DNA from: a virus
Taxonomy: Duplodnaviria > Caudoviricetes
Reading direction: 5' to 3' (one strand)
Virus record (IMG/VR): IMGVR_UViG_3300047560_001295
Location: 1 to 57,999 of that record
DNA: 57,999 bases
Each line of letters opens with the position of its first letter. Position 1 is the first letter of the stretch. Below, in pieces: positions 1,258 through 15,938 of this stretch. The translations under genes and the position numbers were made by a program. The notes under the pieces are model-generated. The model made no database searches, had not been told where the DNA came from, and saw only the letters and a program-made list of their open reading frames with translations.

Positions 1258-2492
1258 GCTGTGTAGCTCCCTGAAGAAGTGAACTTAATAATGGTGTTTG
1301 AACCAGAGGTTGTAACCGTCGGGGAACCTGTGGTTATTCCTGAGTAAGCGATTGTTGGTACAGAGAGGATGACGACACCCGAGCCGCCTGAACCTCCGGC
1401 CATGGATGATTGGACAGCTGCCCCACCACCGCCACCTGTGTTCGCTGTTCCATTATTTCCGGCAGTACCGCCGCCGCCACCACTACCGCTACCACCACCA
1501 GAAGCGGTGCCGCCACCGCCGCAATAATAAACCGCAGATCCAGTAATGGAACTTGAAATTCCGACGCCACCGTAAGCAGTTGCCCCCGAACCACCGGCAC
1601 CACCGGCACCGCCACCACCACCACCAGTGCGGTAAGTAACATTGTCCGATGATCCAGCCCCGCCGCTATTGCCTTGTCCACTTGTACCTGAACCTCCAGC
1701 TGACGCGCCTCCATTGGAGCATCCACCACCACCACCAGACCCACCGCTGCCGCCTGCTTGATTGGTTGAACCTGCTCCACCATAGCCTCCAGCTAAAGCG
1801 GTTAAACTCAAGCCTGTTGTGTTATTACCGGGACTTCCATTATTACCATTACCTGCACCGACGCTACCACCAGCACCAACTACAAAAGAATAATTAGTAC
1901 CAACAGAAAGGGTCGATGTCCCAGTCAACAATCCGCCTGCGCCACCCGCACCGCCGGAGCCACTACTATAACTAGCACCACCACCCCCACCAGCCGCGAT
2001 GAGATATGAAATTGAATAAGCTTGCGGGAGATATGTGGCATTCCCGATTGCGACATCAACCCATCCTTGAGTCGCATCAGCATAAGCTAAAGTCACTGAT
2101 GCGCGGACCGCTGAAACAGTCGCAATAGCACCAGAGCCATGGATCTTACTACCGTTCGGATTGATCGTAATGTTATTGGTCGCAGCCGTTCCCGCATAGT
2201 CGAACACATTGATCTGTTGGCCGGGGGTAGGGGATGCAGGGAGTGTAACAGTAACAGCACCTGAGGCCGTATTGACCGGATAGGAATTTCCCGCAACCGC
2301 TGTAAAATTTGCCGTCTGAACCGATTGAAGTAGTAAATTGCCGCCTGACACCCAAGCAGAACCGTTCCACGTTTCAACACTGGCTATGGTACTGTTGTAT
2401 CCTTGTTGTCCCGGAGTTGGAGATGCCGGACGCGTAGCCGTAGTCCAAGTAGCATTTCCAATCCCGTTAGTACCGGAAAGCGTCAGTGTCAT
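1254..2492 (-). CDS. Glycine-rich virion/fibre protein
   Basis: 412 aa with many GGGG runs and C-terminal [10 protein letters not shown]...[12 protein letters not shown], located in the structural operon. Confidence 0.8.
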
Positions 2493-5044
2493 AAGATCAC
2501 CCAGATAGAATTAGCGGCTATAGTCACGGTTACCCCATCAGCGATACTTATTGGCCCGGCTGACATAGCGTTATTGCCGGAGGCTATGGTGCAATTGCTG
2601 GTTATTGTATTCGCGTTAACCACAATACCATTTGAAGCCGTTAATTGAGGTGCTACCAATTCGCCAGTTAATGGTGTGTATTTAAGTTTCGCCAGATTGA
2701 TTTTACTGGTGGAAACAGGCCCAGTTGCTCCAACAAATACTGGATACAGCGCTGTCGCTGTTGAATTGTCATCAGAGACTGTCGAGTATAACCCCGTGGG
2801 TCCGGTCGCCCCGGCTGGGCCAGTCGCGCCAACCGGTCCTGTTGCTCCTGTTAATCCAGTAGGTCCTGTAGCACCAGTAAGCCCAGTAGGTCCAGTCGCA
2901 CCAGCTGGCCCCACAGAACCTGTAAGTCCAGTAGGCCCTGTTGCCCCGGTTAATCCGGTCGCTCCGACTGGGCCAGTCGCGCCGATAGGACCGGTTGCGC
3001 CGATAGGACCGGTTGCTCCAGTTGCGCCAGTAGGCCCAAGCTGCGTGTAAAGAACTTGTTGAACTGAAACTATAACGCCCGGCGCCACCGGCCCAACACT
3101 CGGTGTTACTGTGGGAATACGGATTGCGGTATTGTCCGTTGCCCACATTAACTGAATGTAATCCCCGGCCAATAACTGCAACGTCATCGGTACTGTAACG
3201 ATTACAAATCCCGGAACACCACCATGCGAGTTTGGAACTGATACATCACTACTGCTGTCTGCGATATCTCCGGTCGCTCCAGTATCGTTTTTACGGAACC
3301 ACAGTAACCCATTGTGGATTTGAGTGTCCGTATTTTCGAACATTACGGATGCATTAATCGTATAGATACCGGCGTTTGCAAAAGTAATACGATTACTCGA
3401 CACAATAGAAACACCATTGCTGTTTGGGTCGGTGTTGCTAATGTTTATCGAATAAGCTGTATTTGTTGCTGCTGCCGATTGGTTTGTTGTATCGTAAAAA
3501 GCACCCCAATAACCATACGCACCACCAGCTCCGGTAGGACCCGTAGCCCCGGTGGCGCCCGTAACACCGACTCCAGTTGGACCGGTAACGCCAGTGGGTC
3601 CAGTAGGCCCAGCAATTCCTTGAGGCCCTGTGGCCCCGATAGGGCCTGTGGCTCCAGCCGGCCCGGTGGCTCCGGTTAAACCGGTGGCCCCAGTTAAACC
3701 TGTAGCCCCGACAGGTCCTGTTGCACCAACAGGCCCAGTTGCGCCAACATCTCCCTGAATTCCTTGCGGACCAGTAGCTCCCGTTAATCCGGTTGGCCCG
3801 GTAGCACCAACGTCTCCCTGTGGGCCTGTAGCCCCTGTTAATCCGGTAGGGCCGGTAGCTCCGACGGGACCTTGCGGGCCGGTAGGGCCAGTTGCACCAA
3901 CATCACCCTGTATACCTTGAGGCCCCGTAGCGCCGACAGGGCCTGTTGCACCGGTAGGTCCATCAACACCCTGCGCACCGGATGGGCCAGTCGGGCCGAT
4001 ATCACCTTGCGGACCCGTCGCCCCGGTCGGCCCATCTAATCCAGCCGGGCCAGTAGCTCCAGCTGGCCCAGTAGGCCCGACGATACTACCGACGTCATCC
4101 CACGCTAATCCAGTCCAGACCCAAAGATGACCGGTATCAGAAGTGATATAGCCATCGCCGGGTAGATTTCCGACAGTTGGTAAATCACTAGATGTTGGAA
4201 CTGAACCTTTGATTGTTATTGAAGTCCCTTGTGGGCCGGTAGCGCCCGTAGGCCCTGTGGGGCCGGTCGACCCCGACGGACCTGTTGCACCGGTAGCGCC
4301 TGTTGCACCTGATGGACCAGTCGGGCCTACGTCACCGGCGATTCCGGATGGGCCAGTAGCACCTGCGGGTCCTACGTCTCCTTGTGGGCCAGATGGGCCA
4401 GTAGCCCCGACGGCGCCCTGTAAACCACTAGGCCCAGTAGCTCCAATAGCTCCTTCAGGTCCTGTGGGACCTTGAACCCCGGATGGACCGGTTGCGCCAA
4501 CATCTCCCTGTAAGCCCTGTGGTCCAGTTGCTCCAACATCTCCCTGTGGTCCTGTTGCTCCAACATTACCTTGAATCCCTTGTGGACCGGTTGAACCAGT
4601 TGGCCCAATTTCGCCGATAGGACCCGTAGCGCCGGATGGACCGCTTGGACCAATGGGGCCTGTCGCACCACTGGGACCGGTAGGACCTATCTCACCCTGA
4701 ATCCCACTGGGTCCGGTAGCCCCAGTAGGTCCAGCTGGTCCATCGTTACCCTGCGGGCCGGTCGGACCAGTCGGCCCCGGAATCGTCGAAGCAGGCCCTG
4801 TGGGTCCTCGAACGTTGCCTGCGTCAAAAAGAACCCCATCATTACGCTCGATGTAAAGGTCATCGCCTTCGACGTAAGCATTTTGAATACCAGTTTCCAG
4901 CGCTAAAGCGGCAGAGGCCGCGGCTTGTTCCGCATATACTTTAGCCGCTAGTGCTCCGCCGAGGTCTTCAGCTCCGACAATAACGACAGCGGTTCTATAT
5001 TCTGGGAATACATCGACAGTATAAAGCGGAGTAACTTCAATCAT
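2489..5044 (-). CDS. Collagen-like fibre protein (GPT/GAT repeats)
   Basis: 851 aa with long Gly-X-Y tracts interrupted by globular modules. Confidence 0.9.
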
Positions 5045-6805: not shown

Positions 6806-7414
6806 TTAAATGGTTTCCTTACCAGCATTAGCCATAGCCTGTTCAAAGGTTTCGAATGCTGGAGCTAGGCTTTTCAGAGCGGCTTTCAGTTTCTCGTCGG
6901 TGAGCTTACCTTCGAGACTTTCGGCGGCATGCTCAAGCTCTTCGAACTGAATCTGAAGGTGGGCCAAAAGAGCTCGAAAAGTAGCCACTTCTGAATCGGC
7001 ATCCTTGCTTTTGTAATCCGGAAAAGGGTCTACAAAAGTCTTGATTCTATCTCGATCGACGGGCTGTGTATGCCCATCTGGAAATTCAACATTGTATAGA
7101 TTAGATCCCTGATAGGTCTTGACCTTAATCCTTGTCCCAGCCGGATATGAACCTCCACCGACTTTAGGAACGGTGCGGATAAGCATGGCCACAGTGTCAG
7201 CATCTTTTACACCAAGGCTTTTCAATTCGCCGCGAAGCTGTTTCAGCTTTTCGGCCGTCTTTGCTTTTTCCTGAAGCGGAGCACTGCCAGTGTAAGCGTT
7301 CATCCGGCCTTCGAGGCGTTTGATCTCTGCCTTGACTTGAGAAATACGGTTCTCAGATGAATTAGCATCACGCGCTTTACGAAGACGAAGATGGATGTGG
7401 ACATGCTTAGTCAT
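6806..7414 (-). CDS. Hypothetical modular protein, putative internal virion cargo polyprotein
   Basis: KHVHIH leader and three [KR]DA motifs separating three segments; located in the head module. Confidence 0.6.
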   Translation of the reverse strand: MTKHVHIHLRLRKARDANSSENRISQVKAEIKRLEGRMNAYTGSAPLQEKAKTAEKLKQLRGELKSLGVKDADTVAMLIRTVPKVGGGSYPAGTRIKVKTYQGSNLYNVEFPDGHTQPVDRDRIKTFVDPFPDYKSKDADSEVATFRALLAHLQIQFEELEHAAESLEGKLTDEKLKAALKSLAPAFETFEQAMANAGKETI

Positions 7415-7416
7415 GA

Positions 7417-7635
7417 TTAAACCTTTTTAGAAAGAACTTGCATCATACGCATGTAAATGCCCGGGCCGCGGAAATCTCCACCAATCTTGTAGGCTTCCTG
7501 CTTTACCTTACGGGCAAAAGCTTCGCATTCAGATTTGAGCTGAGCTTCACGGGTCTTTTCATCTGGACTAATAGTACCATCTGGATTTGCATCCTTTCCC
7601 CGGCCTTTCAGATAAACATGAATGTGCTTTGCCAT
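7417..7635 (-). CDS. Small hypothetical protein with HxHxY leader
   Basis: Likely start [16 protein letters not shown] at 7635, overlapping the upstream TAA. Confidence 0.65.
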   Translation of the reverse strand: MAKHIHVYLKGRGKDANPDGTISPDEKTREAQLKSECEAFARKVKQEAYKIGGDFRGPGIYMRMMQVLSKKV

Positions 7636-7856
7636 TATTCGTCCCCGTAACAATGAGAATTAGCTTCCAGCTCAGCCTGACTCACCTGAGACGGGAGAGT
7701 ATCCAATTTCCCCATTTCATATTCAGGAATTGCGTCATTTGCTCGCTGGGTAGCGTAACCAATAGCCGCCGCCTGCTTCGGGTCTTTCCCGTGCTCAATT
7801 TCGGTGGCGATATTCTTTTGCAGGGCTTCTTCCGAAGCAGACTGAATTAGCGGCAT
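7635..7856 (-). CDS. Small head-module phage protein
   Basis: MPL...[18 protein letters not shown] resembles a recurrent small phage protein; coupled to both neighbours. Confidence 0.65.
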
Positions 7857-8377
7857 TAGAAACTCCCAAGCTGTTCTGAAGCGTTTTTAAGGGCATCCCG
7901 TGCCTTGGTCAGTGCTGCAGTCTGTTCTTTGGTTAAATCGCTAAGCTTTTCCAACAAAGCGCCAAGCTCCAGCTGAGCGGAATTAGCCTTCGCCTTGATA
8001 GAGTCAAGAGCTTGCTTAGCCGGGAAACCGGTTACAGAAGCCGTATCCGGAACACCAACAATCACGGTACCACAAGCCTTACTGTACCAGCTTTCGGCGT
8101 GAGCTCTTGGCATAACTACATTGCCCGGCATATAAGTAACCCGACGATGATGGTCAAGACTAATAGTATAACGCTGAGTGACTTTCGCCACCACTAAATC
8201 TTCAGCCGGACTTTCGGTGGTATCTTCAGAAACGGAATCATCCGTTTCGGTCTCTGGTACAACCGGTTCTTCTGCGGCCGGAACTGGGGTTTCTTCTACG
8301 ATCGGGGCGGAGGTGGCTTCTTCTGCAGGTGCCTGTGCTGGAGCCTGCCACGGGGCGTCTTTCTTAGCCATGTTCAA
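7856..8377 (-). CDS. Hypothetical head-associated protein
   Basis: Acidic Pro/Ala-rich N-terminus and helical C-terminus; lies downstream of the capsid gene. Confidence 0.65.
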
Positions 8378-9117
8378 TCCTCTAGTTTAGGTTTCTTAAT
8401 CATACCGTAGACCCAGCCATCTGGTAAGGGTTCCCCGGCTTTCAGTTGCTTCATCTCGATTCCATCGTTAATAAATCGAGACCCCAGCTTTTTTGCGGAA
8501 GCAGTTGGGAGTTTGGTCCCTGTGTGTGCTTCTCGCATCCGTTCTTTCGTTTCTTCGGAAAACGGTGTTCTTTTCTTTCCCAGTTTAGCCTGTCGAATTT
8601 TCTCATTTCGGGCGGCTATCTGTTCTTGGGTTAAATTCTGATGTGGGTCTATTCCCCGCTTTGCTAAACCAGCCGCTTTAACCTTTTCTGAATTACGCAA
8701 CGATTCACTTAATTTGCGCCTAACTTCTTCTGAATGCGGGATTCCTTTACGATACTGGTTACCGAGGTTTTGACCCCGAAGGCTGGCGGCTATTCGGTCT
8801 CGAACTTCTTGGGTAGGATTGACTAAGCCATCACCACCAATAGTTCCGTTGACCACAGTATCGGCGTAATGCTCAATCCAATACTGTTCGCGTTCTTGCC
8901 AGTTCTCCTCAGAGACTTCCTCAAGAATCAATATCCCCGGACGAATCCCATCGTCCGTTAAACTGTTGAGCCAATGATGACGGTGGCTCTTTCTCTTTTT
9001 CTTCGCCTCGGTCAAATGTTGAATGAGACGAAATTCCGCAGTGTACTGGGTGTATCCGACATAGCGGATCACGTTCGGTTCAATACGCGGATCAAACAAT
9101 CCGTAGATAATCGCCAT
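8374..9117 (-). mobile_element. Free-standing GIY-YIG homing endonuclease with NUMOD3-like repeats
   Basis: IIYGLFDPR...RYVGYT and EREQYWI motifs; repeats HSEEVRRKLSES and FSEETKERMREAH. Confidence 0.85.
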
Positions 9118-9123
9118 TTGGGG

Positions 9124-9154
9124 AATCTCCCTGCTTGTTTAGAACAGGGAGATT
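9124..9154 (-). promoter_or_regulatory. Hairpin sequestering the endonuclease ribosome-binding site
   Basis: Perfect 10-bp stem AATCTCCCTG/CAGGGAGATT; the GGGAG Shine-Dalgarno lies in the arm next to the ATG at 9117. Confidence 0.65.
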
Positions 9155-9187
9155 TTACCTTAGGCCCTAACGGCTTTTCAACCGTTA

Positions 9188-10294
9188 TTATAACCCATCG
9201 AAGTAGCCCAAAAGTTCCGGGTACACGATTTCCACAGCACCGAGCTTACAGAAGTAAGTGGTCTTGTGGAAAATGGAATCGTACTGTACCGGGGTGCGGT
9301 TCAGCAGGGTCATCGGGAAGCGAACGCGATCCCGTTCCTGCTTGTAAACTACAGCTCGGTCAACAGTACCGGCTACGCCCAGCGTACCGCCTGCACCTGC
9401 ACCGACGAGCCACTTGACCGGCTTGATGTCCAGTTCCTTACCTTCAGAACGGGTAAAGAGGTTGTTCTCAAGGATGTACTTGAGGATGGACACGTTACCA
9501 GCGTTCGAGACTTTCTGGGTAGCGATGTAACCGTACTGAGCCGGCGGAAGCAGGATCTTGTCAGAGATGACAGCCCAACCTGAAGCAGTCCAAGTGCTAA
9601 CGAGCATTTCGTTAACATCAGCGAGGATTTCGTCAGGAGTCTTCTTGGTCCACTGAGAGAAACCGCTGATACCGTCTGGGAGGCTGGTCTGCGTACCGTA
9701 CTGGGCTACCAGCGGGTTGTTGACCAGACCATACAGACCAAGGCTAGTATCACCGATATAAACCTGTTCGTCGATGTCCATCTGATGCTTCAGCTGGAGA
9801 GCTTCAAACTTCTGCTGGTCGATCGGACGGCCGAGCTTTGCAGCTGATTCCAATTCGAAGAGGGTGTAAGCCAGCTCATTACCCCAAGGAGTAAGCGGGT
9901 TTGCAATCTTCGCGATGTCGATAGAAGTGCCGGGAACCTGATTTGATTTACGGCCGATCCATGACTTACCGTTACCCACAGCCTGACCGTCTCCGAGGCC
10001 ACCGGCTGAAGCAAAGCTTGAAACGGTGAAGCTGGAAACGTCGTCAGCAATGGTCACATCGTCACGGAGGTCGATATCTCGGCCCCAAGTGACAGCCGCA
10101 AGCGGCTTGTGAAGGGTAAGATCCAAACGCTCCAGTTCACCGACGAGGAATGCACCAGTTGAGTCAACGGTGCGACCATCGTGGGTCTGGAAATTGGTGC
10201 CGAGCAGTCGGCCCCGTTCGGTGCCGGCCTGATCGATAACCTGCTTGCCAGCGGCATCGAAGGTCATCATATCACGAGTCTTCATTCTTTTCAT
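9188..10294 (-). CDS. Major capsid protein (DUF2184-like)
   Basis: 368 aa with GAFLVGELERLD, YGLVN and TPDEILADVN motifs; follows the protease and decoration genes. Confidence 0.9.
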   Translation of the reverse strand: MKRMKTRDMMTFDAAGKQVIDQAGTERGRLLGTNFQTHDGRTVDSTGAFLVGELERLDLTLHKPLAAVTWGRDIDLRDDVTIADDVSSFTVSSFASAGGLGDGQAVGNGKSWIGRKSNQVPGTSIDIAKIANPLTPWGNELAYTLFELESAAKLGRPIDQQKFEALQLKHQMDIDEQVYIGDTSLGLYGLVNNPLVAQYGTQTSLPDGISGFSQWTKKTPDEILADVNEMLVSTWTASGWAVISDKILLPPAQYGYIATQKVSNAGNVSILKYILENNLFTRSEGKELDIKPVKWLVGAGAGGTLGVAGTVDRAVVYKQERDRVRFPMTLLNRTPVQYDSIFHKTTYFCKLGAVEIVYPELLGYFDGL

Positions 10295-10308
10295 CTGTTG
10301 ATTACCTC

Positions 10309-10896
10309 TTAGATGTTGAACGCAATTTCAGCGTAGCCGTTGGCGTCAGCGCTGCTGTTCCAGTAAGCGTTGAGCACTTCGATTGTGTTGCCAGCACTAG
10401 CCTGTGCTTCAAAGCCACCCTGTACATGAGAACCCGTTGAGGCTTCATACCATACGTAAACTGGGTTGCCCTTCAGCGGGGTCTGACCTGTGGGAACGGC
10501 GACGATCATAAAGCCGCGGCACATAACGTCCACTTCGCCGGAGACCGGAAGACCAGAAGCACCGATGCCAACAGCACCGAAGTTCTGATTGGTCTGAGCC
10601 TGCTGGAACGGGTACGGACGAACCGTAATACCGTAAAGTGAGATGTTAGCGTCATCCGTGGCGATGATCTTACGGATAGCGTGTGAGGTTGCATCGATAA
10701 CCACAGCCTGACCGAAAGCGGTCGGAGGATTCGTGGTATCCATCAGTGAAGGAAGAATGTCTACCGGATGGGTACGGTTGACATCACCGGGATAGCCAGC
10801 ACCCATGCGGTACTTGAAGGCTACGTCCTTGAACTTTGCTCTTTTCATGTGTTTCACCTTATTTCTTGGAAGAGTAAGACTGCTTGTTAAGCTCAT
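10309..10896 (-). CDS. Capsid decoration/cement protein (likely start MKRAKF)
   Basis: YRMGAGYPGDVNR and YGITVRPYP motifs, ends EIAFNI; sits between protease and capsid. Confidence 0.75.
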   Translation of the reverse strand: MSLTSSLTLPRNKVKHMKRAKFKDVAFKYRMGAGYPGDVNRTHPVDILPSLMDTTNPPTAFGQAVVIDATSHAIRKIIATDDANISLYGITVRPYPFQQAQTNQNFGAVGIGASGLPVSGEVDVMCRGFMIVAVPTGQTPLKGNPVYVWYEASTGSHVQGGFEAQASAGNTIEVLNAYWNSSADANGYAEIAFNI

Positions 10897-12292
10897 TCAG
10901 CTCCGCAAGAGTCATGACCGGCTTTTTGGCCGGACGACCCATGTCAGGAATTGAATCCCGAACCTGACCGCTTGCGTTACTGTTACGCTTAACAGCCGCC
11001 GCAGAACGGAACAGGACTCGAGCTGCATCACAAGTCATCCGACTGGTATCAAGAACCTTGCCATTCATAAGGTCTTCGATAATTGGACGAGTTGCGGCGG
11101 TACCGTAAGCCATATCCAGAGCCTGCTTGCGCAGTTTGCAGATACGCTTTGCGGTAACCACGGGAGCTGCAGCCGAATCAAAAGTAGGAATGCGAATGCC
11201 CGGAGAAAGAATCTCAGCCAGTGCAATCGTATCCTTAAAGCTATCCTTCAGGTAGCGTGAATCGCGAGCCTTGGTGACTTCTTCCTCTGAAACACCTTCA
11301 GGGGCTTCATCCTTGAGGAATTCTTCAAGCTTCTCGCCTTCTTCACCTTCTTCGTCAAGAGTCTCAGCCGCAGGCGGGGTATCCCCAGCAAGCTTAGCTT
11401 CGAGAGCTTCAAGACGCGAACGGAATTCATCATGGTCAGAATCATTGCGTGCGATAAATTCATTGATGTCGTCGTCGGAGAAACCAGTGCGGCCACCGAA
11501 ATCGTCGTCATCCTGTGAACCAGCGTGGATGTGGATATGAGAGCCGCCAAGCTCTTCGTCCAGCATACCAACTCGTTCTTCTTCGGTCAGCGCTTCATCC
11601 TGAGCCATCTCTTCAGCGATTTCGCTGATTTCTTCGGCATCCTTTGCCTTATGAGCCCGGAACAGATAGTCATAGAATCTGCCCAGACCCTTCGTCTTCT
11701 TACTTTTCGCCATTGGTGTAGCCTCTAAGTTAGGTTTCTGGTCTTTGATTGCACATCTTGAACCACAGCGCCCTTGTTCCACAAGAGCAATATGGTTGAT
11801 GATGATATTAGACTGCTTCCCCATACCATCCCCAGTAATTTCGTAATCTGCATCGTATCCGAGGCTGATTTCTCTCTTACCACTCTGGACGGCCTCAATA
11901 CCTTCCGTCGTGGTTATCATTAAGTCCATCAAAAGAAGATCATCCATAGCTCCTTCACCGCGCCGGACATTCAGGGCTACACCGTGGGCTTCACCTTTCC
12001 AATTCGCGGGAGTGACGTCTTCTTCGGGATGGTCATTTGTGACAGGTTTACCAATTGCGCTAGCAATAGTAGCCTGAGAGAAAACGTCTTCCTCATTACG
12101 GAAGATTTTGACAATACCGTCTGGACCCGGCTCGATAGGCGTTTCTTCAGGCCCGTAGATCATCATGCCGGTTCTGGCCACAGGTACATCCCGACACAGC
12201 AAAAAGCCTTCGGGGGTGAGTTCCTGATTCGGCCCGATTTTCTCGACAGTATAGATACTAGCCCTAATCATACTTATCGTTCCAGAATTCAC
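10859..12292 (-). CDS. Prohead protease-scaffold (DUF2213-like)
   Basis: TPEGFL...VARTG, PVTNDHP, EISLGY and NHIALVEQGRCG motifs followed by an acidic scaffold region. Confidence 0.9.
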   Translation of the reverse strand: MNSGTISMIRASIYTVEKIGPNQELTPEGFLLCRDVPVARTGMMIYGPEETPIEPGPDGIVKIFRNEEDVFSQATIASAIGKPVTNDHPEEDVTPANWKGEAHGVALNVRRGEGAMDDLLLMDLMITTTEGIEAVQSGKREISLGYDADYEITGDGMGKQSNIIINHIALVEQGRCGSRCAIKDQKPNLEATPMAKSKKTKGLGRFYDYLFRAHKAKDAEEISEIAEEMAQDEALTEEERVGMLDEELGGSHIHIHAGSQDDDDFGGRTGFSDDDINEFIARNDSDHDEFRSRLEALEAKLAGDTPPAAETLDEEGEEGEKLEEFLKDEAPEGVSEEEVTKARDSRYLKDSFKDTIALAEILSPGIRIPTFDSAAAPVVTAKRICKLRKQALDMAYGTAATRPIIEDLMNGKVLDTSRMTCDAARVLFRSAAAVKRNSNASGQVRDSIPDMGRPAKKPVMTLAELNELNKQSYSSKK

Positions 12293-12360
12293 GTGAAAAC
12301 AAAATAAACAATCAACACGGTAAATTTAAATCCAAGAGCAACTATCAGTCACTTGATTTT

Positions 12361-12789
12361 TTAAATTTTCGCTAATTGGAAATGCATACCATCTGGACGC
12401 TTCCAATTACCGCCCCATTCAAATCCCGCGTCAGTAAAACACTTAACGAATTTTGCTGACAAAACGGGAGGTTTACCCAGTCGGTTCCAAGTGGCATTGA
12501 GATCGATTGCAATGCCCCAAGAATGAAGACTGGGGGATGGGATAATAGTTCCACGAATGTTGCGAATGTTGAAACATCCATCCCAAGTCTTTAGTTCGTG
12601 AACACATCCGGTTGAAATCAGATTCTTAAATGCGGCTTCTAATGGGCCGGGCATTAGTTTGTTACAGTAAATACGTTTTGGGATTACCCCAATTTCGAGA
12701 TTTTCCGGTACATCCCACATCACCATGAACTTGCGTTCATTTTCCTTTGGGTTTCCCCACTTAGCAAAACAGTCTTTTGAAGTAGTCAT
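12361..12789 (-). CDS. Endolysin, M15 family peptidase
   Basis: SLHSWGIAIDLN and WGGNWKRPDGMHFQ zinc-peptidase motifs. Confidence 0.9.
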   Translation of the reverse strand: MTTSKDCFAKWGNPKENERKFMVMWDVPENLEIGVIPKRIYCNKLMPGPLEAAFKNLISTGCVHELKTWDGCFNIRNIRGTIIPSPSLHSWGIAIDLNATWNRLGKPPVLSAKFVKCFTDAGFEWGGNWKRPDGMHFQLAKI

Positions 12790-12977
12790 CTAAACCATCC
12801 TTTATCAAAAGCCATGGTGATGATTGAAGCCAGCGCTCCCACTGTAAAAGTGACTCCGGCTATAAAACCTCTTTGCTTTGTCTGATTTTCCAATATCAAA
12901 TCAACCTTGTCAGCTACTTGTCCCATATGCTCTACTCTTTCTTCGAGCCGGGCGAGGCGGCATGGTACGTCTGGCAT
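12786..12977 (-). CDS. Small membrane protein, holin/antiholin candidate
   Basis: Likely start MPDVPC; coiled coil followed by a C-terminal hydrophobic helix; overlaps the endolysin start. Confidence 0.55.
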   Translation of the reverse strand: MPDVPCRLARLEERVEHMGQVADKVDLILENQTKQRGFIAGVTFTVGALASIITMAFDKGWFR

Positions 12978-12981
12978 TGCT

Positions 12982-13260
12982 TTAACCCTTTTTGATTCCA
13001 GCGTCTTTGTTCGAGGCTGTTTGAATGAGCTGGCCCAATGTGACGCCAAGAATAGCAGCCCCATTAGCAAGAGTCTGAACATCGGTTGCTCCAATACCAA
13101 GACTAATTCCCTGACTCTCCAGAATCGAAATAACTAGAGCCGCTAACGGACCGAGAATCGAAAGAGCTGAAGCTCGTGAGCTCCAAGTCGAGGCATTTGA
13201 TAGTTGTTTGCCGTATTCGAGGGCTTTTGCAAAAGAAGTGACTGCTTCGAAAATGTTCAT
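12982..13260 (-). CDS. Putative holin
   Basis: 92 aa with two hydrophobic segments and a basic C-terminus; upstream of the endolysin. Confidence 0.55.
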   Translation of the reverse strand: MNIFEAVTSFAKALEYGKQLSNASTWSSRASALSILGPLAALVISILESQGISLGIGATDVQTLANGAAILGVTLGQLIQTASNKDAGIKKG

Positions 13261-13272
13261 AGTGTTCTCCGG

Positions 13273-14040
13273 TTAAAGTTCTTCCTCGAGGATAGGTTCT
13301 GGATAACACCGGCAATTTGGGAACATCCCCGCGTGGTACCGATAACCCGGATCAACCTCTGGAGGATCATCCCAAGCAATTATCCTACCGTTAAATTTCT
13401 TATGGCTCGCCCTTACATCCCCGTCTCCTGAGGTTCTCCAGTAATAATGCGTTGCACCCACGTGTTTTGAGCGCGCCATGGTAAGACCTGAAGCCGTTCG
13501 AGCCACTTCTGTGCGGGCGATTAGCTGGGCACGACTTTTAGTAACAGAACCTGTTTCGAGGATTTTTGCCGCTATGCTTGAAGCCCTTTCCCCGGTGGTT
13601 ATCCCTTCAAGCGTCATTTTATGGACCCGTTCAGCCGCTTCAATAGGGAGGCTCTTTATCAAGACTACCTGTTCGGCCATAAATGACCGAAGCGTTTCTC
13701 CAACTGGGGCATCTTGAAGTTCTTTGCGGAGGGATCGATTGATTTGTTTACCTAGACGGGTCCAGTTGTTCTCGTCGATGGATTCAACTCGTTTGACCAT
13801 TTTCTCAGCAGCGCTTTCAGCCCACGGAGTAATGGTTTCACCGTATTGCCTAAGCATGGCTTGAAGTCGGGCTTGCGCTCGCTCCAATTCGTATTGAGTC
13901 ATTTTAATGTTGACCATACCTTTAACCATGTGGTCAATCTGGTTGGTCAGCTTGCGGATGTTTCGAAGATAATCCCGTTCGACCCGGGAGGCTACCGCAT
14001 ACCGTTCTCTTGCCTGACGTTTGAGCTGTCTTTCGTTCAC
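13273..14040 (-). CDS. Head morphogenesis protein (MuF / SPP1 gp7 family)
   Basis: RAQLIARTE, WRTSGDGDVRASH and NCRC motifs. Confidence 0.92.
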   Translation of the reverse strand: MNERQLKRQARERYAVASRVERDYLRNIRKLTNQIDHMVKGMVNIKMTQYELERAQARLQAMLRQYGETITPWAESAAEKMVKRVESIDENNWTRLGKQINRSLRKELQDAPVGETLRSFMAEQVVLIKSLPIEAAERVHKMTLEGITTGERASSIAAKILETGSVTKSRAQLIARTEVARTASGLTMARSKHVGATHYYWRTSGDGDVRASHKKFNGRIIAWDDPPEVDPGYRYHAGMFPNCRCYPEPILEEEL

Positions 14041-15938
14041 AGCTTGTCCGCAAGACCTTTAAGCCTATCGGCAAATCCCGGATACATTTCATATGGGAGC
14101 TCGTCTGGCTTTACCCACAAATGATCGTAATGCTCGTCGCTGAGCTGGGGCTCGAATGGCAATACACCCTTGACCAAGAACAACGTAAACCCATCTTTTG
14201 TATCAAGATACTCAATAGGTGCCTTTGGATCGAGGGTGTATCCGGTTTCTTCACTAAATTCACGGCGAGCACCAGCACGTAAGTCTTCGCCGGCTTCGAC
14301 CCAACCACCGGGACAAGACCAAGTGAACGGACCGGTGGAGGCTAGAGCGGAACGGCGGAGGAGGAGAAGGTAACCGTCTTTATCCACATAAAGGATTCCA
14401 GCCGCTTGCTGTGCACTATCCCTAGCCGGGCCTTTGAACTCAATCATATCTTCCGGTTCATGACCAAGCGGTTCTTCAGGAAGTGGCGGTTCTTCATTCT
14501 CGGCGTCGGTAATGAGTTCATCAGTTACATTGCTGAAAATACCAGTTACGCGGGATTGTTGTTTTAGTTCTTTGAGTGCGGTGCCTCTGTCGATAAGCCC
14601 GGATTCCTCGACACTACTTACTGTGCGCGCCGTGGTCTCTGCAATGGATGCTTTCTCCGTCTCGCTTAACTGCCACAAGCTGTTAAATTCGATGCGGAAG
14701 CCTTCGGGAAGTTCGACGCCTTCAGAGGCTGCTATAGCGCGGTAGACCTTGGTCATTGAAGAACGTAGGTCTTTTTCTTGTTGCTGTTTGATTGTATCGT
14801 AATAATTCCGGAGATCCGTTTCTCCGGTACTAAACCCAGACGGGGACTGGCCGAACAGACGCACTAGCGGGATCTGCAAAGAGCCGGACAATTGCTGGGC
14901 AAACTGGGTAAGTGCTTCAGACAAGCCACCGAATGCAGCGTGGGTATCGGCGCTGACCTCATCCTCGGCATCAAGCAAAGTCATGCCTTCGATACCTTGA
15001 AACCTACGCATCATTTCGACATACTTTGTAAGACCGTTTAGGGCATCTCCGCCCGCAGCCACCACCTGTCGAAGATTCTTGATTTTGTAATTGCGGATGT
15101 AGGACTTATAGACTAATTGGGCGGCACCTGTGGTCGCGGAGTCGAATGCAATCATCCTATCGTAAAGGCGTTCGAGAACACTGAGCCCCCACAGGTTCTC
15201 CATAACGCGTTGCCAATAGGGAAGGCGGATACCTTCTAAACGAATGCAACGACTATAATGAATCTTTTGATTCATTAGCGCAGGTGCCATAGCGGTGACC
15301 CTGTAGTACTTCGGGTTACCCATGTTTGGTCCCATTTCCTGTACAAGGTCATAAAGAGTCGGCTCTACCATCCAACGATCCAGTGGTAGAATGCCTTTGA
15401 ATTGATCTTTGCGAATGGTGTTGAGGCGAAGCGGGGTCGAAAGGTCTTGCCCCTCAACCAACAAAACTCCCAAAGCTCCACCATAAAGGCGAGCCCATTT
15501 AATTGTCTCGTTGACGGACTTCCAGATCCCTAGTGTCACAGCGGCTTCTTCTATTGCCAGCACTTGGCCGGGCTCCATCTCCCCGGTCAGTGATACCCCG
15601 GCTCTGGTCATATCGTCAGCTACAACGTCGACGGCGACGCCGCCAAGCCAACTGCCCCGGTGAATCCATTCCAGCAAGACACGAATGCGGGTGACAGGAT
15701 TAAATCCGTAGGTACTGGATGACATTGCGTTGTCACTACCAATACCGAGATTGTGGGCAAAGTTGACAAAGCTATCCAACGTTTTATCGTTGGATACTTC
15801 GGGGACGTCTTCCCCAGTGATTGCTTGAGAGATTTTCTTAGCGGCGGCATCGGCAACTTCTGCCCGGATACGCTGGTCTTCCTCAAGCTGCTTGTCGACT
15901 ACGCTTTGAATACCGACTCGTTTATTTCTTCGTGACAT
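14037..15938 (-). CDS. Portal protein (DUF1073-like) with a C-terminal Nudix hydrolase domain
   Basis: WARLYGG and IPLVRLFGQSPSG...DLRNYYD portal motifs; complete Nudix box GWVEAGEDLRAGARREFSEETG. Confidence 0.9.
   Translation of the reverse strand: MSRRNKRVGIQSVVDKQLEEDQRIRAEVADAAAKKISQAITGEDVPEVSNDKTLDSFVNFAHNLGIGSDNAMSSSTYGFNPVTRIRVLLEWIHRGSWLGGVAVDVVADDMTRAGVSLTGEMEPGQVLAIEEAAVTLGIWKSVNETIKWARLYGGALGVLLVEGQDLSTPLRLNTIRKDQFKGILPLDRWMVEPTLYDLVQEMGPNMGNPKYYRVTAMAPALMNQKIHYSRCIRLEGIRLPYWQRVMENLWGLSVLERLYDRMIAFDSATTGAAQLVYKSYIRNYKIKNLRQVVAAGGDALNGLTKYVEMMRRFQGIEGMTLLDAEDEVSADTHAAFGGLSEALTQFAQQLSGSLQIPLVRLFGQSPSGFSTGETDLRNYYDTIKQQQEKDLRSSMTKVYRAIAASEGVELPEGFRIEFNSLWQLSETEKASIAETTARTVSSVEESGLIDRGTALKELKQQSRVTGIFSNVTDELITDAENEEPPLPEEPLGHEPEDMIEFKGPARDSAQQAAGILYVDKDGYLLLLRRSALASTGPFTWSCPGGWVEAGEDLRAGARREFSEETGYTLDPKAPIEYLDTKDGFTLFLVKGVLPFEPQLSDEHYDHLWVKPDELPYEMYPGFADRLKGLADKL

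Follow-up and report, generated by a model that had tools for sequence, protein, structure and literature searches.

Among phages that carry proteins in their heads, T4 offers the closest functional precedent. Its prohead protease is gp21, and its non-essential, mutually unrelated internal proteins (IPI-III, Alt) share a short N-terminal leader that ends at that protease's own cut site, with scaffold and capsid proteins cut by the same rule as the cargo (PMC9958956 and PMC5694885). T4-type proteases are described as cutting after Glu (PMC5694885), and T4 as packing and injecting an ADP-ribosyltransferase behind a cleaved leader (PMC9958956). The stretch analysed here (the window: 57,999 nt, positions 1-57,999 of the IMG/VR record IMGVR_UViG_3300047560_001295, Caudoviricetes) resembles T4 on each of these points: a short N-terminal leader is common to unrelated proteins, it ends, by comparison, at a site for the prohead protease, the scaffold and capsid proteins are proposed to be cut by the same rule, and, in relatives, the putative cargo likewise includes an ADP-ribosyltransferase. 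It also differs. The protease is DUF2213 (PF09979) and not Peptidase_S77, so the likeness is not one of homology; the P1 residue is Asp, with P2 and P4 basic, in place of Glu with hydrophobic P3; the leader is an alternating His/Ile strand with no resemblance to that of T4; it is mirrored inside the scaffold; and in the tagged proteins its distance from the cut varies. By function, then, the leader and Asp site would be a variant of T4-style capsid targeting.

Three other systems bear on the locus. Coliphage TLS (T1-like; gp33 fusion, gp36 capsid) shares the gene order as well as the families of protease (PF09979) and capsid protein (PF09950), and its capsid protein is cut after Asp and before Ala, but its scaffold lacks HxHxH. 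In herpesviruses, the pUL26-type polyprotein joins an N-terminal serine protease, assemblin, to a scaffold, with a release site after the protease domain and a maturation site ahead of the conserved C-terminal tail, both between Ala and Ser; cargo leaders are not known from that system. The window fusion has a protease that may belong to the same fold class and candidate cuts in the same arrangement, one after the protease domain and one ahead of a conserved tail, some 30 residues from the C-terminus, but no detectable sequence similarity to the herpesvirus protein. Finally, the window portal carries an enzyme domain on a head structural protein within one ORF, as in the class of portal- and MuF-fused effectors and polyvalent proteins; a further shared feature is an LPD3 domain on a leader-tagged protein of Burkholderia phage BgManors32. 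Iyer et al. (2017) predicted packaging of such domains into the head and their injection. The processing proposed there, unlike here, relies on a metallopeptidase domain that is part of the polyvalent protein itself, and the portion of their text consulted describes neither a His leader nor prohead-protease cutting (PMC5512222).

Table 1. Head-module genes of the window with their leaders and candidate cut sites (all on the minus strand; the arrow marks the putative scissile bond)
Feature	Position (nt)	Strand	Basis or remark
Leader-tagged modular protein, 202 aa (6806 protein)	6806..7414	-	
6806 leader HVHIH (KHVHIH)	7391-7405	-	
6806 candidate cut KARD↓A	7364-7378	-	
6806 candidate cut GVKD↓A	7199-7213	-	
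6806 candidate cut KSKD↓A	6998-7012	-	
Leader-tagged small protein, 72 aa from MAKHIHVY (7417 protein)	7420..7635	-	
7417 leader HIHVY	7612-7626	-	
7417 candidate cut RGKD↓A	7588-7602	-	
Small conserved protein (phrog_2423)	7635..7856	-	PHROGs; RAND↓A at 7731-7745
Acidic protein conserved after capsid gene (7856 protein)	7856..8371	-	
7856 probable start MAKKD↓A	8354-8371	-	
7856 second site KARD↓A	7892-7906	-	12 residues from C-terminus; absent from initial annotation
Major capsid protein (PF09950)	9188..10294	-	Pfam
Capsid candidate cut KTRD↓M	10268-10282	-	
Capsid candidate cut RTVD↓S	10160-10174	-	
Cement/decoration protein (PF22758/PF23982)	10309..10848	-	Pfam; probable start MKRAKFKD↓V
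Cement candidate site KFKD↓V	10822-10836	-	
DUF2213 protease-scaffold fusion	10859..12292	-	PF09979
Protease domain	11738-12223	-	Residues 24-185
Candidate site AIKD↓Q	11738-11752	-	Invariant Asp
Candidate site KAKD↓A	11636-11650	-	
Internal SHIHIH	11525-11539	-	
Candidate site KARD↓S	11258-11272	-	
Candidate site QVRD↓S	10952-10966	-	~30 aa before C-terminus
Portal with C-terminal Nudix domain	14037..15938	-	Pfam; portal residues 92-440, NUDIX residues 510-619
Nudix domain of portal	14082-14411	-	Pfam
Candidate site PARD↓S in portal-Nudix linker	14415-14429	-	4 residues before Nudix domain

The explanation that we consider reasonably probable is a two-part N-terminal propeptide, HxHxH for co-assembly with the scaffold followed by an Asp site for the DUF2213 protease. 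The first part would be an amphipathic strand that copies the G-D-T-H-I-H-I-H-x-G of the disordered linker in the phage's own protease-scaffold fusion, and it would most likely drive co-assembly of the tagged protein with the scaffold core during procapsid formation. The second part, 2-16 residues on, would be basic-[T/A/V]-[K/R]-Asp↓[Ala/Ser], cut after Asp by the serine protease, whose fold is putatively assemblin/T4 gp21-like. The same cut would trim short basic N-terminal peptides off the capsid and cement proteins, part the fusion into its protease, linker and scaffold domains, take the C-terminal capsid-binding tail off the scaffold, split the 6806 protein into modules and detach the portal's Nudix domain. 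The pieces of leader and scaffold would exit the head; the mature cargo would remain inside and reach the host together with the DNA. The initial annotation had proposed that HxHxH recruits cargo to the scaffold, that the protease cuts near Asp and that the released proteins are injected; comparison bears out the shared leader, its link to the protease and scaffold element, and Asp as P1, and from these we infer scaffold binding by HxHxH, loading, presence in the virion and injection.

The leader, N-terminal M-x-x-H-[IV]-H-[IV]-H with a basic-x-[KR]-D-[AS] site usually about 2-16 residues after it, occurs in the window phage and dozens of relatives, on two proteins in the window (6806 and 7417) and on up to four per genome elsewhere. 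A scan of IMG/VR for ATG-[A/S/T]-x-HIHIH returned 84 stretches representing 71 distinct ORFs, and in 21 of the 48 ORFs of at least 50 aa, the set used for the leader-site test, [KR]D[AS] starts no more than 22 residues downstream of the leader, against 2.1 in pooled shuffles (maximum 8 in 2000); a control stretch, residues 41-65 of the leader ORFs, has the motif in 1 of 42. In a set of 44 leaders, the five leader codons make up 32 distinct 15-mers in which CAT/CAC and ATT/ATC/ATA are mixed. P4, unselected in the scan, is K or R in 31 of the 44; 32 have Ala and 6 have Ser as the P1' residue after the leader-linked Asp. One leader is common to otherwise unrelated proteins, in the window pair and beyond: among 36 leader proteins, mean column identity drops to 9% once the leader is left aside. 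On this comparative evidence the leader is a widespread signal selected at the protein level.

The protease-scaffold gene, located between the portal/MuF genes and the PF09950 capsid gene, matches PF09979 at 163.6 bits (cut-off 22; 166.6 bits in a second search). Its protease domain is modelled by AlphaFold at pLDDT >90, and the best Foldseek matches of the model are T4 gp21 and the proteases of EBV, HCMV and HSV (probability 0.8-0.99, E ~0.01, TM 0.25-0.48). The putative catalytic residues His81, Ser136 and His160 are invariant in 24/24 aligned fusions. The looser site AIKDQ had been suggested to end the protease domain; its Asp is likewise invariant in 24/24, but its P1' residue is not small. 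The AlphaFold model puts every candidate site of the protein in a loop or a disordered segment, where it would be accessible, and the HxHxH stretch is unstructured in this monomer model. The fusion also carries YLKDS.

Leader and protease occur together. Of the 32 records with a leader ORF judged plausible in advance, 21 contain PF09979, among them all 11 that are at least 70% complete (within G001-G031); none of the 14 with a spurious-looking leader match does. An internal HxHxH is found in 22/24 fusions from leader phages, at about residue 210-280, with two His invariant. In a sample of 80 loci picked solely by homology to the fusion, 77 of them with a full-length gene, leader ORFs are close by at 20 of the 39 whose scaffold carries the internal element versus none of the 38 that lack it. 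Together, these counts tie the leader both to the DUF2213 protease and to the scaffold HxHxH. Part of the association with the scaffold element may reflect common descent: a tree built from the 77 protease domains requires about 10 changes of the internal element, only 2 of them forced by well-supported branches, and independent pairs were too few for a test on them to become significant. At the other 19 of the 39 loci, many of them short, no leader ORF was seen. Among cultured phages, Edwardsiella phage ZHS has both leader and internal element, BgManors32 has variant forms of both, and Bordetella phage IFTN9 has neither; literature listings yielded no virion proteome for ZHS or BgManors32.

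The same observations could be read differently, with HxHxH docking on the protease domain as an exosite or degron, rather than on the scaffold, so as to deliver tagged proteins to the enzyme for cutting, and the internal copy serving as the enzyme's own processing site. The internal element is indeed situated between the protease and scaffold domains, and in a few scaffolds it directly precedes an Asp site, as leaders do (HIHIHKD↓A in L005, HVHVHAND↓A in L006, HIHIHTGD↓A in L102). A docking element would sit poorly with a leader-to-Asp spacing that varies from 2 to 16 residues, and with the window and most fusions, where no good cut site follows the internal element; we regard docking as unlikely, though the least unlikely of the alternatives. 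Protease and scaffold being fused, the two versions are hard to separate by sequence.

A second and less likely alternative grants co-assembly with the scaffold but sees the small tagged proteins as auxiliary scaffolds or assembly factors that are degraded and expelled, with nothing delivered to the host. The tagged proteins of the window are small, helical and scaffold-like, without an enzyme domain, and one of them weakly resembles a phage scaffold family, below the threshold (E = 0.0097). The predicted products of the 6806 protein, a 16-aa leader and modules of 55, 67 and 64 aa, include pieces (55-67 aa) small enough for exit from the procapsid. This protein has no homologue except itself among 5.8 billion clusters; its ortholog in the 97% relative L002 has one extra module, after NAGD↓A, and its AlphaFold model (low confidence, pLDDT 55) places the three sites in loops between blocks of secondary structure. 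Against mere assembly factors, leaders in relatives precede an ADP-ribosyltransferase (87 bits), a Nudix hydrolase (65 bits), a topoisomerase IB core (50 bits) and LPD3 (100 bits), enzymes that would have no procapsid role. Phages that are 97% identical differ in which genes are tagged, as expected of accessory cargo, and the 7417 domain recurs behind Glu-type, T4-like leaders in phages with an S77 protease.

Three comparisons support the Asp motif as a cut site with Asp at P1. The first is the TLS capsid protein, whose mature form begins ASDMGIW by Edman sequencing (PMC11447400); in the TLS gene this sequence is preceded by ...GAKND, so that the N-terminus lies directly after Asp. The TLS paper inferred that 45 residues are removed and, in the part consulted, states no Asp rule (PMC11447400), whereas in the annotated protein the Edman sequence follows residue 27. 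A MAFFT alignment places the TLS cut opposite RTVD↓S of the window capsid. The second is the widespread mature 7417 domain (ANPDGTISPDE...IGGxFRxPGI), for which a profile search found 144 relatives and which begins right at the proposed cut. Of 102 relatives classed by the residue just before the domain, 72 have Glu, with L/I/V/M two residues earlier in 68, and 19 have Asp, preceded by Lys in 11; 10 of the 19 Asp forms bear the HxHxH leader, and none of the 72 Glu forms does. DUF2213 was found in 10/13 records holding an Asp form and Peptidase_S77 (PF03420) in 0/13; for the Glu form, S77 was found in 10/20 records and DUF2213 in 0/20. Judged from these sequences, the site switches with the protease family, hydrophobic-x-Glu for the T4-type and basic-x-Asp for DUF2213. 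The third is the portal-Nudix linker, which diverges in sequence yet keeps basic-x-[KR]-D just ahead of the domain. Of 14 other contexts, 10 have a [basic or T/H]-D 4-8 residues before the first Nudix strand, irrespective of the fusion partner, and the same Nudix domain is also found directly after a HIHIH leader. The proposed cut near Asp thus gains support by comparison, with Asp behaving as a P1 residue. The looser variants KTRDM and KFKDV, which the initial annotation had listed for capsid and cement proteins, are kept in relatives as N-terminal basic peptides ending in Asp: 51/79 capsid relatives have such a peptide 1-3 residues before a conserved TFD, both proteins begin MKKIRAKTKD in G021, and both have RARTRD in ZHS. 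Orthologs of the 7856 protein start MAKKDA (L002), MAVKKDA (G021) and MAKKDQ (G003).

It is quite improbable that [KR]-D-[AS] is instead an uncut structural feature of Lys/Asp/Ala/Glu-rich helical proteins (N-caps, calcium loops), with the His strand binding metal or having another structural role. Several sites, D-A-E-E or D-S-x-x-L, are helix-cap-like; the D-S that opens the scaffold C-terminal domain and the RTVD-S within conserved capsid sequence could be structural; and the TLS scaffold has no significant excess of D[AS] (8 vs 4.8 expected, reached by 350/5000 shuffles). In the 12-residue calcium loop of an EF-hand, positions 1, 3, 5 and 12 supply ligands, position 6 is Gly and position 8 is Ile. 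By eye, the 7417 site overlaps an EF-hand-like loop (D/E-A-N-P-D-G-T-I-S-x-D-E; the domain has no Pfam match), whose position 1 could be the Asp or Glu before ANPDG. A structural role would not account for the exact cut after Asp in TLS, nor for a pre-domain Glu/Asp that tracks the protease family while its neighbours change from hydrophobic P3 to basic P2/P4, nor for 7417-domain relatives that start directly M(A)NPDG, without that residue. Nor would it explain why the site is kept in otherwise unconserved portal-Nudix linkers and follows the leader in unrelated proteins.

All motif instances of the initial annotation were confirmed in minus-strand ORFs, in a head module whose gene identities are backed by Pfam and PHROGs. 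The head module has 12 [KR]D[AS] against 3.1 expected from composition (3039 residues), a count reached by 1/3000 within-protein shuffles, and the rest of the window has 9 against 9.9 (14650 residues; Fisher p = 4e-5). Allowing for motif choice, this window-only enrichment is borderline, because the motif was picked post hoc and ranks second among the 652 patterns, of 16820 tried, with at least 5 matches (corrected p ~0.07). With motif and region (portal to DUF4054) fixed beforehand, the enrichment recurs in four other phage genomes, a fifth being excluded for want of a DUF4054 match: 26 vs 13.4 expected in the head region (11585 residues) and 42 vs 58.2 outside it (63868 residues; odds ratio 3.4, Fisher p = 4e-6). 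Chance, to which a post hoc motif with such a corrected p lends some color, is very improbable given this replication and the leader-site link in 48 independent ORFs.

The tag and Asp site, on the comparisons made here, most likely load proteins into the head and trim them there. If this is true, a simple rule applied to sequence would show what these phages carry in addition to DNA.

The N-terminal His leader M-x-x-H-[IV]-H-[IV]-H (HxHxH) is a stronger signal than the [KR]D[AS] motif that stands behind it. In a relative of 61% identity, M-x-x-HIHIH opens four small ORFs, and the scaffold keeps THIHIH together with three Asp sites. A scan of IMG/VR for ATG-[A/S/T]-x-HIHIH returned 84 stretches with 71 distinct ORFs, 48 of them of at least 50 residues; in 21 of these 48, [KR]D[AS] falls no more than 22 residues after the leader, against 2.1 in pooled shuffles, and a later stretch of the leader proteins, used as a control, carries it in 1 of 42. 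Across 44 leaders the site has K/R at P4 (31/44), T/A/V at P3, R/K at P2, Asp at P1 and Ala (32) or Ser (6) at P1′, at a distance of 2–16 residues from the leader, most commonly 7, and the basic-x-[KR]-D-[AS] site proposed in the initial annotation agrees with this consensus. Thirty-two distinct 15-mers encode the leader in these 44 cases, and because the codons differ synonymously, a signal at the level of RNA or DNA is ruled out. In many leader proteins a second conserved motif, W-E-E-S-K-H-P-R-x-x-x-G-K-F-G, lies directly behind the Asp site (seen in L036, L044, L047, L059, L152 and L179, all loci from the collection scans, in ZHS_5 of Edwardsiella phage ZHS and in gp73 of Burkholderia phage BgManors32). 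When cultured phages were searched by tblastn, ZHS_5 matched itself alone and L036 gave one weak ParB-like match, outside the leader. A full-text search on HIHIH turned up no published account of the leader, none of the matches listed being on phage.

Every instance of the Asp motif named in the initial annotation is present in the window, along with two that it had not listed, YLKDS in the scaffold and KARDA close to the C-terminus of the 7856 protein (7856..8371, minus strand). The enrichment in head proteins that it proposed to test was seen: [KR]D[AS] occurs 12 times in 3,039 head-module residues against 3.1 expected from composition, a count reached by 1 of 3,000 shuffles, and 9 times in the 14,650 residues of the rest of the window, where 9.9 are expected. 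One of the 12, NKDAGIKKG at the C-terminal end of a 92-aa membrane protein, is probably unrelated to capsid processing. Since the motif was chosen after reading, and ranked second among the 652 patterns with at least 5 hits when 16,820 three-position patterns were tried on the window as a post hoc control, the window by itself is suggestive, not decisive. No pattern is more over-represented in the head proteins than the tripeptide P-D-G (6 versus 0.62 expected), which ranks above [KR]D[AS]. With motif and region fixed, the enrichment was found again in four other phage genomes, one further genome being left out for want of a DUF4054 match: 26 in 11,585 head residues (13.4 expected) versus 42 in 63,868 non-head residues (58.2 expected), an odds ratio of 3.4 with p = 4e-6. 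The scaffold of the T1-like coliphage TLS has no significant motif excess.

The window, 57,999 bases long, is the record of an uncultured virus and has an estimated completeness of 97%, and a megablast of its head region gave no match among cultured phages, so that no near relative was found there. The gene order of the head module is set out in the table. The homing endonuclease gene is missing at the same place in L002, a 97% relative, and is thus a recent insertion; the M15 peptidase is likely an endolysin. An 851-aa protein (window 2489-5044), in which eight stretches consist of collagen triple-helix repeats and the C-terminal part is free of repeats, is probably a tail fibre.

Features of the head region of the window, in gene order
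Feature	Position in window	Strand	Basis or place in gene order
Head module	6806-15938	-	gene order and family matches
Large terminase	adjoins 6806-15938, outside		first in gene order
Portal protein with C-terminal Nudix domain	head module	-	after large terminase
MuF-like protein	head module	-	after portal
Two small membrane proteins and M15 peptidase	12361-13260	-	between MuF and protease genes
DUF2213 protease-scaffold fusion	head module	-	after membrane proteins / M15 peptidase
Cement protein	head module	-	after DUF2213 fusion
PF09950 capsid protein	head module	-	after cement protein
GIY-YIG/NUMOD3 homing endonuclease	8374-9117	-	between capsid gene and next head gene
Four small ORFs, then DUF4054 connector protein	head module	-	end of gene order

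The leader is associated with the DUF2213 (PF09979) protease and with an element inside its scaffold part. IMG/VR leader records were sorted by eye into plausible and spurious before the DUF2213 search, with four loci left out; DUF2213 was present in 21 of the 32 records with a plausible leader, in 11/11 of those among records G001-G031 with a completeness of 70% or more, and in 0/14 of those with a spurious match. At about residue 210-280, 22 of 24 protease-scaffold fusions from leader phages carry G-D-T-H-I-H-I-H-x-G, and the remaining two retain two of its His. An AlphaFold model places this element in a disordered linker, and every scaffold Asp site in a loop or disordered stretch. Eighty loci were chosen solely by homology to the fusion, 77 of them with a full-length gene, and leader ORFs flank 20 of the 39 with the scaffold element versus none of the 38 without it. 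Part of this link may be shared ancestry, since the protease-domain tree, on which the element is scattered and needs about 10 changes, is poorly resolved, and an independent-pairs test of leader versus element, with 2 pairs on supported branches, is underpowered. A complex prediction for the protease-scaffold protein with the 7417 protein (7420..7635, minus strand), run without controls, scored 0.00 and is uninformative either way.

Four lines of evidence make a cut after Asp the candidate specificity of the DUF2213 protease: Edman data from TLS, a residue swap ahead of the 7417 domain, the portal-Nudix junctions, and the N-termini of capsid and cement proteins. The protease and capsid families of TLS are those of the window, and Edman sequencing of the TLS capsid protein gave ASDMGIW (PMC11447400); in the TLS gene this is preceded by ...GAKND. 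Capsid and cement proteins have short basic N-terminal peptides ending in Asp, which are identical between the two proteins in one genome (MKKIRAKTKD) and RARTRD in both proteins of ZHS, and such a peptide is found in 51 of 79 capsid relatives. Within the window capsid protein, RTVD/S (10160-10174; the slash marks the proposed cut) is conserved in every close relative, and because MAFFT aligns the Edman-defined TLS cut with it, in a region where the alignment is unreliable (19% identity), the protein may lose 44 residues, not 8. The portal-Nudix linkers are unconserved, yet a [K/R]-D is retained 4-8 residues ahead of the first Nudix strand, and an Asp site precedes Nudix in 10 of 14 other contexts, one of which is a stand-alone Nudix protein whose domain comes straight after an HIHIH leader. 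Where the protease domain ends, C-A-I-x-D (AIKDQ, window 11738-11752) has its Asp in 24/24 fusions, followed by Q/K/R/H/E, not Ala/Ser; this Asp may mark self-release with another P1′, or it may have a structural or catalytic role. AIKDQ and RANDA are thus putative sites, and several of the conserved D-S pairs may be structural instead. A PDB sequence search found no relative of the DUF2213 protease family, which is without a solved structure. We found no mature N-terminus in the accessible published text on a T1-like Klebsiella phage or Rogue1, and nothing on DUF2213 protease specificity or an Asp rule in the titles and abstracts of the papers listed for DUF2213 and DUF2184.

In its mature part (window 7420-7587) the 7417 protein reads A-N-P-D-G-T-I-S-P-D-E ... 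I-G-G-x-F-R-x-P-G-I, a domain that has no Pfam family and 144 relatives at E <= 1e-3. This ANPDG domain often forms the C-terminal 60 residues of its protein, the lengths of such proteins running from 65 to about 800 aa; repeat proteins as long as 3,481 aa match it too. Its core was located once in 102 of the 144. Immediately before the domain, 72 of the 102 carry Glu, 68 of them with L/I/V/M at P3, and 19 carry Asp, 11 of them with Lys at P2; five or six relatives begin directly at the domain. In T4 cut sites, P3 is Leu or Ile. Ten of the 19 Asp forms bear the HxHxH leader, versus 0/72 Glu forms. Seventy viral loci with the domain were fetched and 60 classed, one record per contig being searched for proteases, which covered all Asp and Asn forms and, for the Glu forms, contigs of 20 kb or longer. 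Asp-form records had DUF2213 in 10/13 and T4-type Peptidase_S77 in 0/13; Glu-form records had Peptidase_S77 in 10/20 and DUF2213 in 0/20; all three Asn-form records (KLAN/ANPDG and ALSN/TNPDG in L260, L261 and L263, records G076-G078) had a more distant DUF2213 (114 bits), which suggests an Asn-type cleavage dialect in a sister DUF2213 clade. T4-type proteases are described as cutting after Glu (PMC5694885). The ANPDG loop looks like a calcium site of the EF-hand or dockerin kind, and the Asp or Glu ahead of it could be a calcium-loop residue.

As to what is loaded, the tagged proteins of the window have no known domains. The 6806 protein (6806..7414, minus strand) resembles a string of modules with Asp sites between them; its ortholog in the 97% relative has one extra module, and the same genome has an additional leader protein. 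A homologue search with the 6806 protein returned itself alone, and a protein atlas look-up of its middle module gave low-score leads (0.86) and no structure. Elsewhere the leader precedes an ADP-ribosyltransferase, a Nudix hydrolase, a topoisomerase IB core and an LPD3 domain, and it also stands on large proteins of unknown kind; proteins of such types are packed and injected by T4 and other phages (PMC9958956, PMC5512222). Leader-tagged proteins are predicted, from their sequences, to be packed and injected cargo.

The system would work like the T4 capsid-targeting sequence and gp21. However, it differs from the T4 system in protease family, P1 residue and leader, and is thus not a member of it by homology. 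It belongs with the DUF2213 protease-scaffold group of the T1-like phages, and the architecture of its fusion resembles that of the herpesvirus protease-scaffold polyprotein. A bolder reading, which we regard as tentative and on balance doubtful, joins a homotypic HxHxH beta-zipper, possibly metal- or pH-dependent, to a family-specific one-residue protease code with which the cargo leaders would co-evolve. The scaffold linker and the cargo leaders would pair via the same His/Ile strand, any tagged protein would be counted into the core, and the prohead protease would read Asp here, Asn in the sister DUF2213 clade and Glu in T4-type phages. If this were true, the packaged and injected proteome could be deduced from sequence alone for a large fraction of uncultured tailed phages, and the tag could be used as a portable loading signal.

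Proteins packed beside phage DNA are often the first to counter host defences or to take over the host, and we know of no rule for recognising them outside the T4-like and giant phages. A rule of leader plus Asp site would allow cargo to be listed for phages whose DUF2213 fusions carry the internal HxHxH element, which include cultured Edwardsiella and Burkholderia phages; the DUF2213 family as such, to which T1-like coliphages and numerous phages of Vibrio and Klebsiella belong, is matched in 558 phage-collection records. A cut after Asp would provide a testable specificity for this protease family, and unannotated modules such as the ANPDG domain and the 6806 pieces would become candidate early effectors. 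Finally, the mirrored element in the scaffold suggests a mechanism of loading, and it offers an easy way to have foreign proteins packaged in phage heads.
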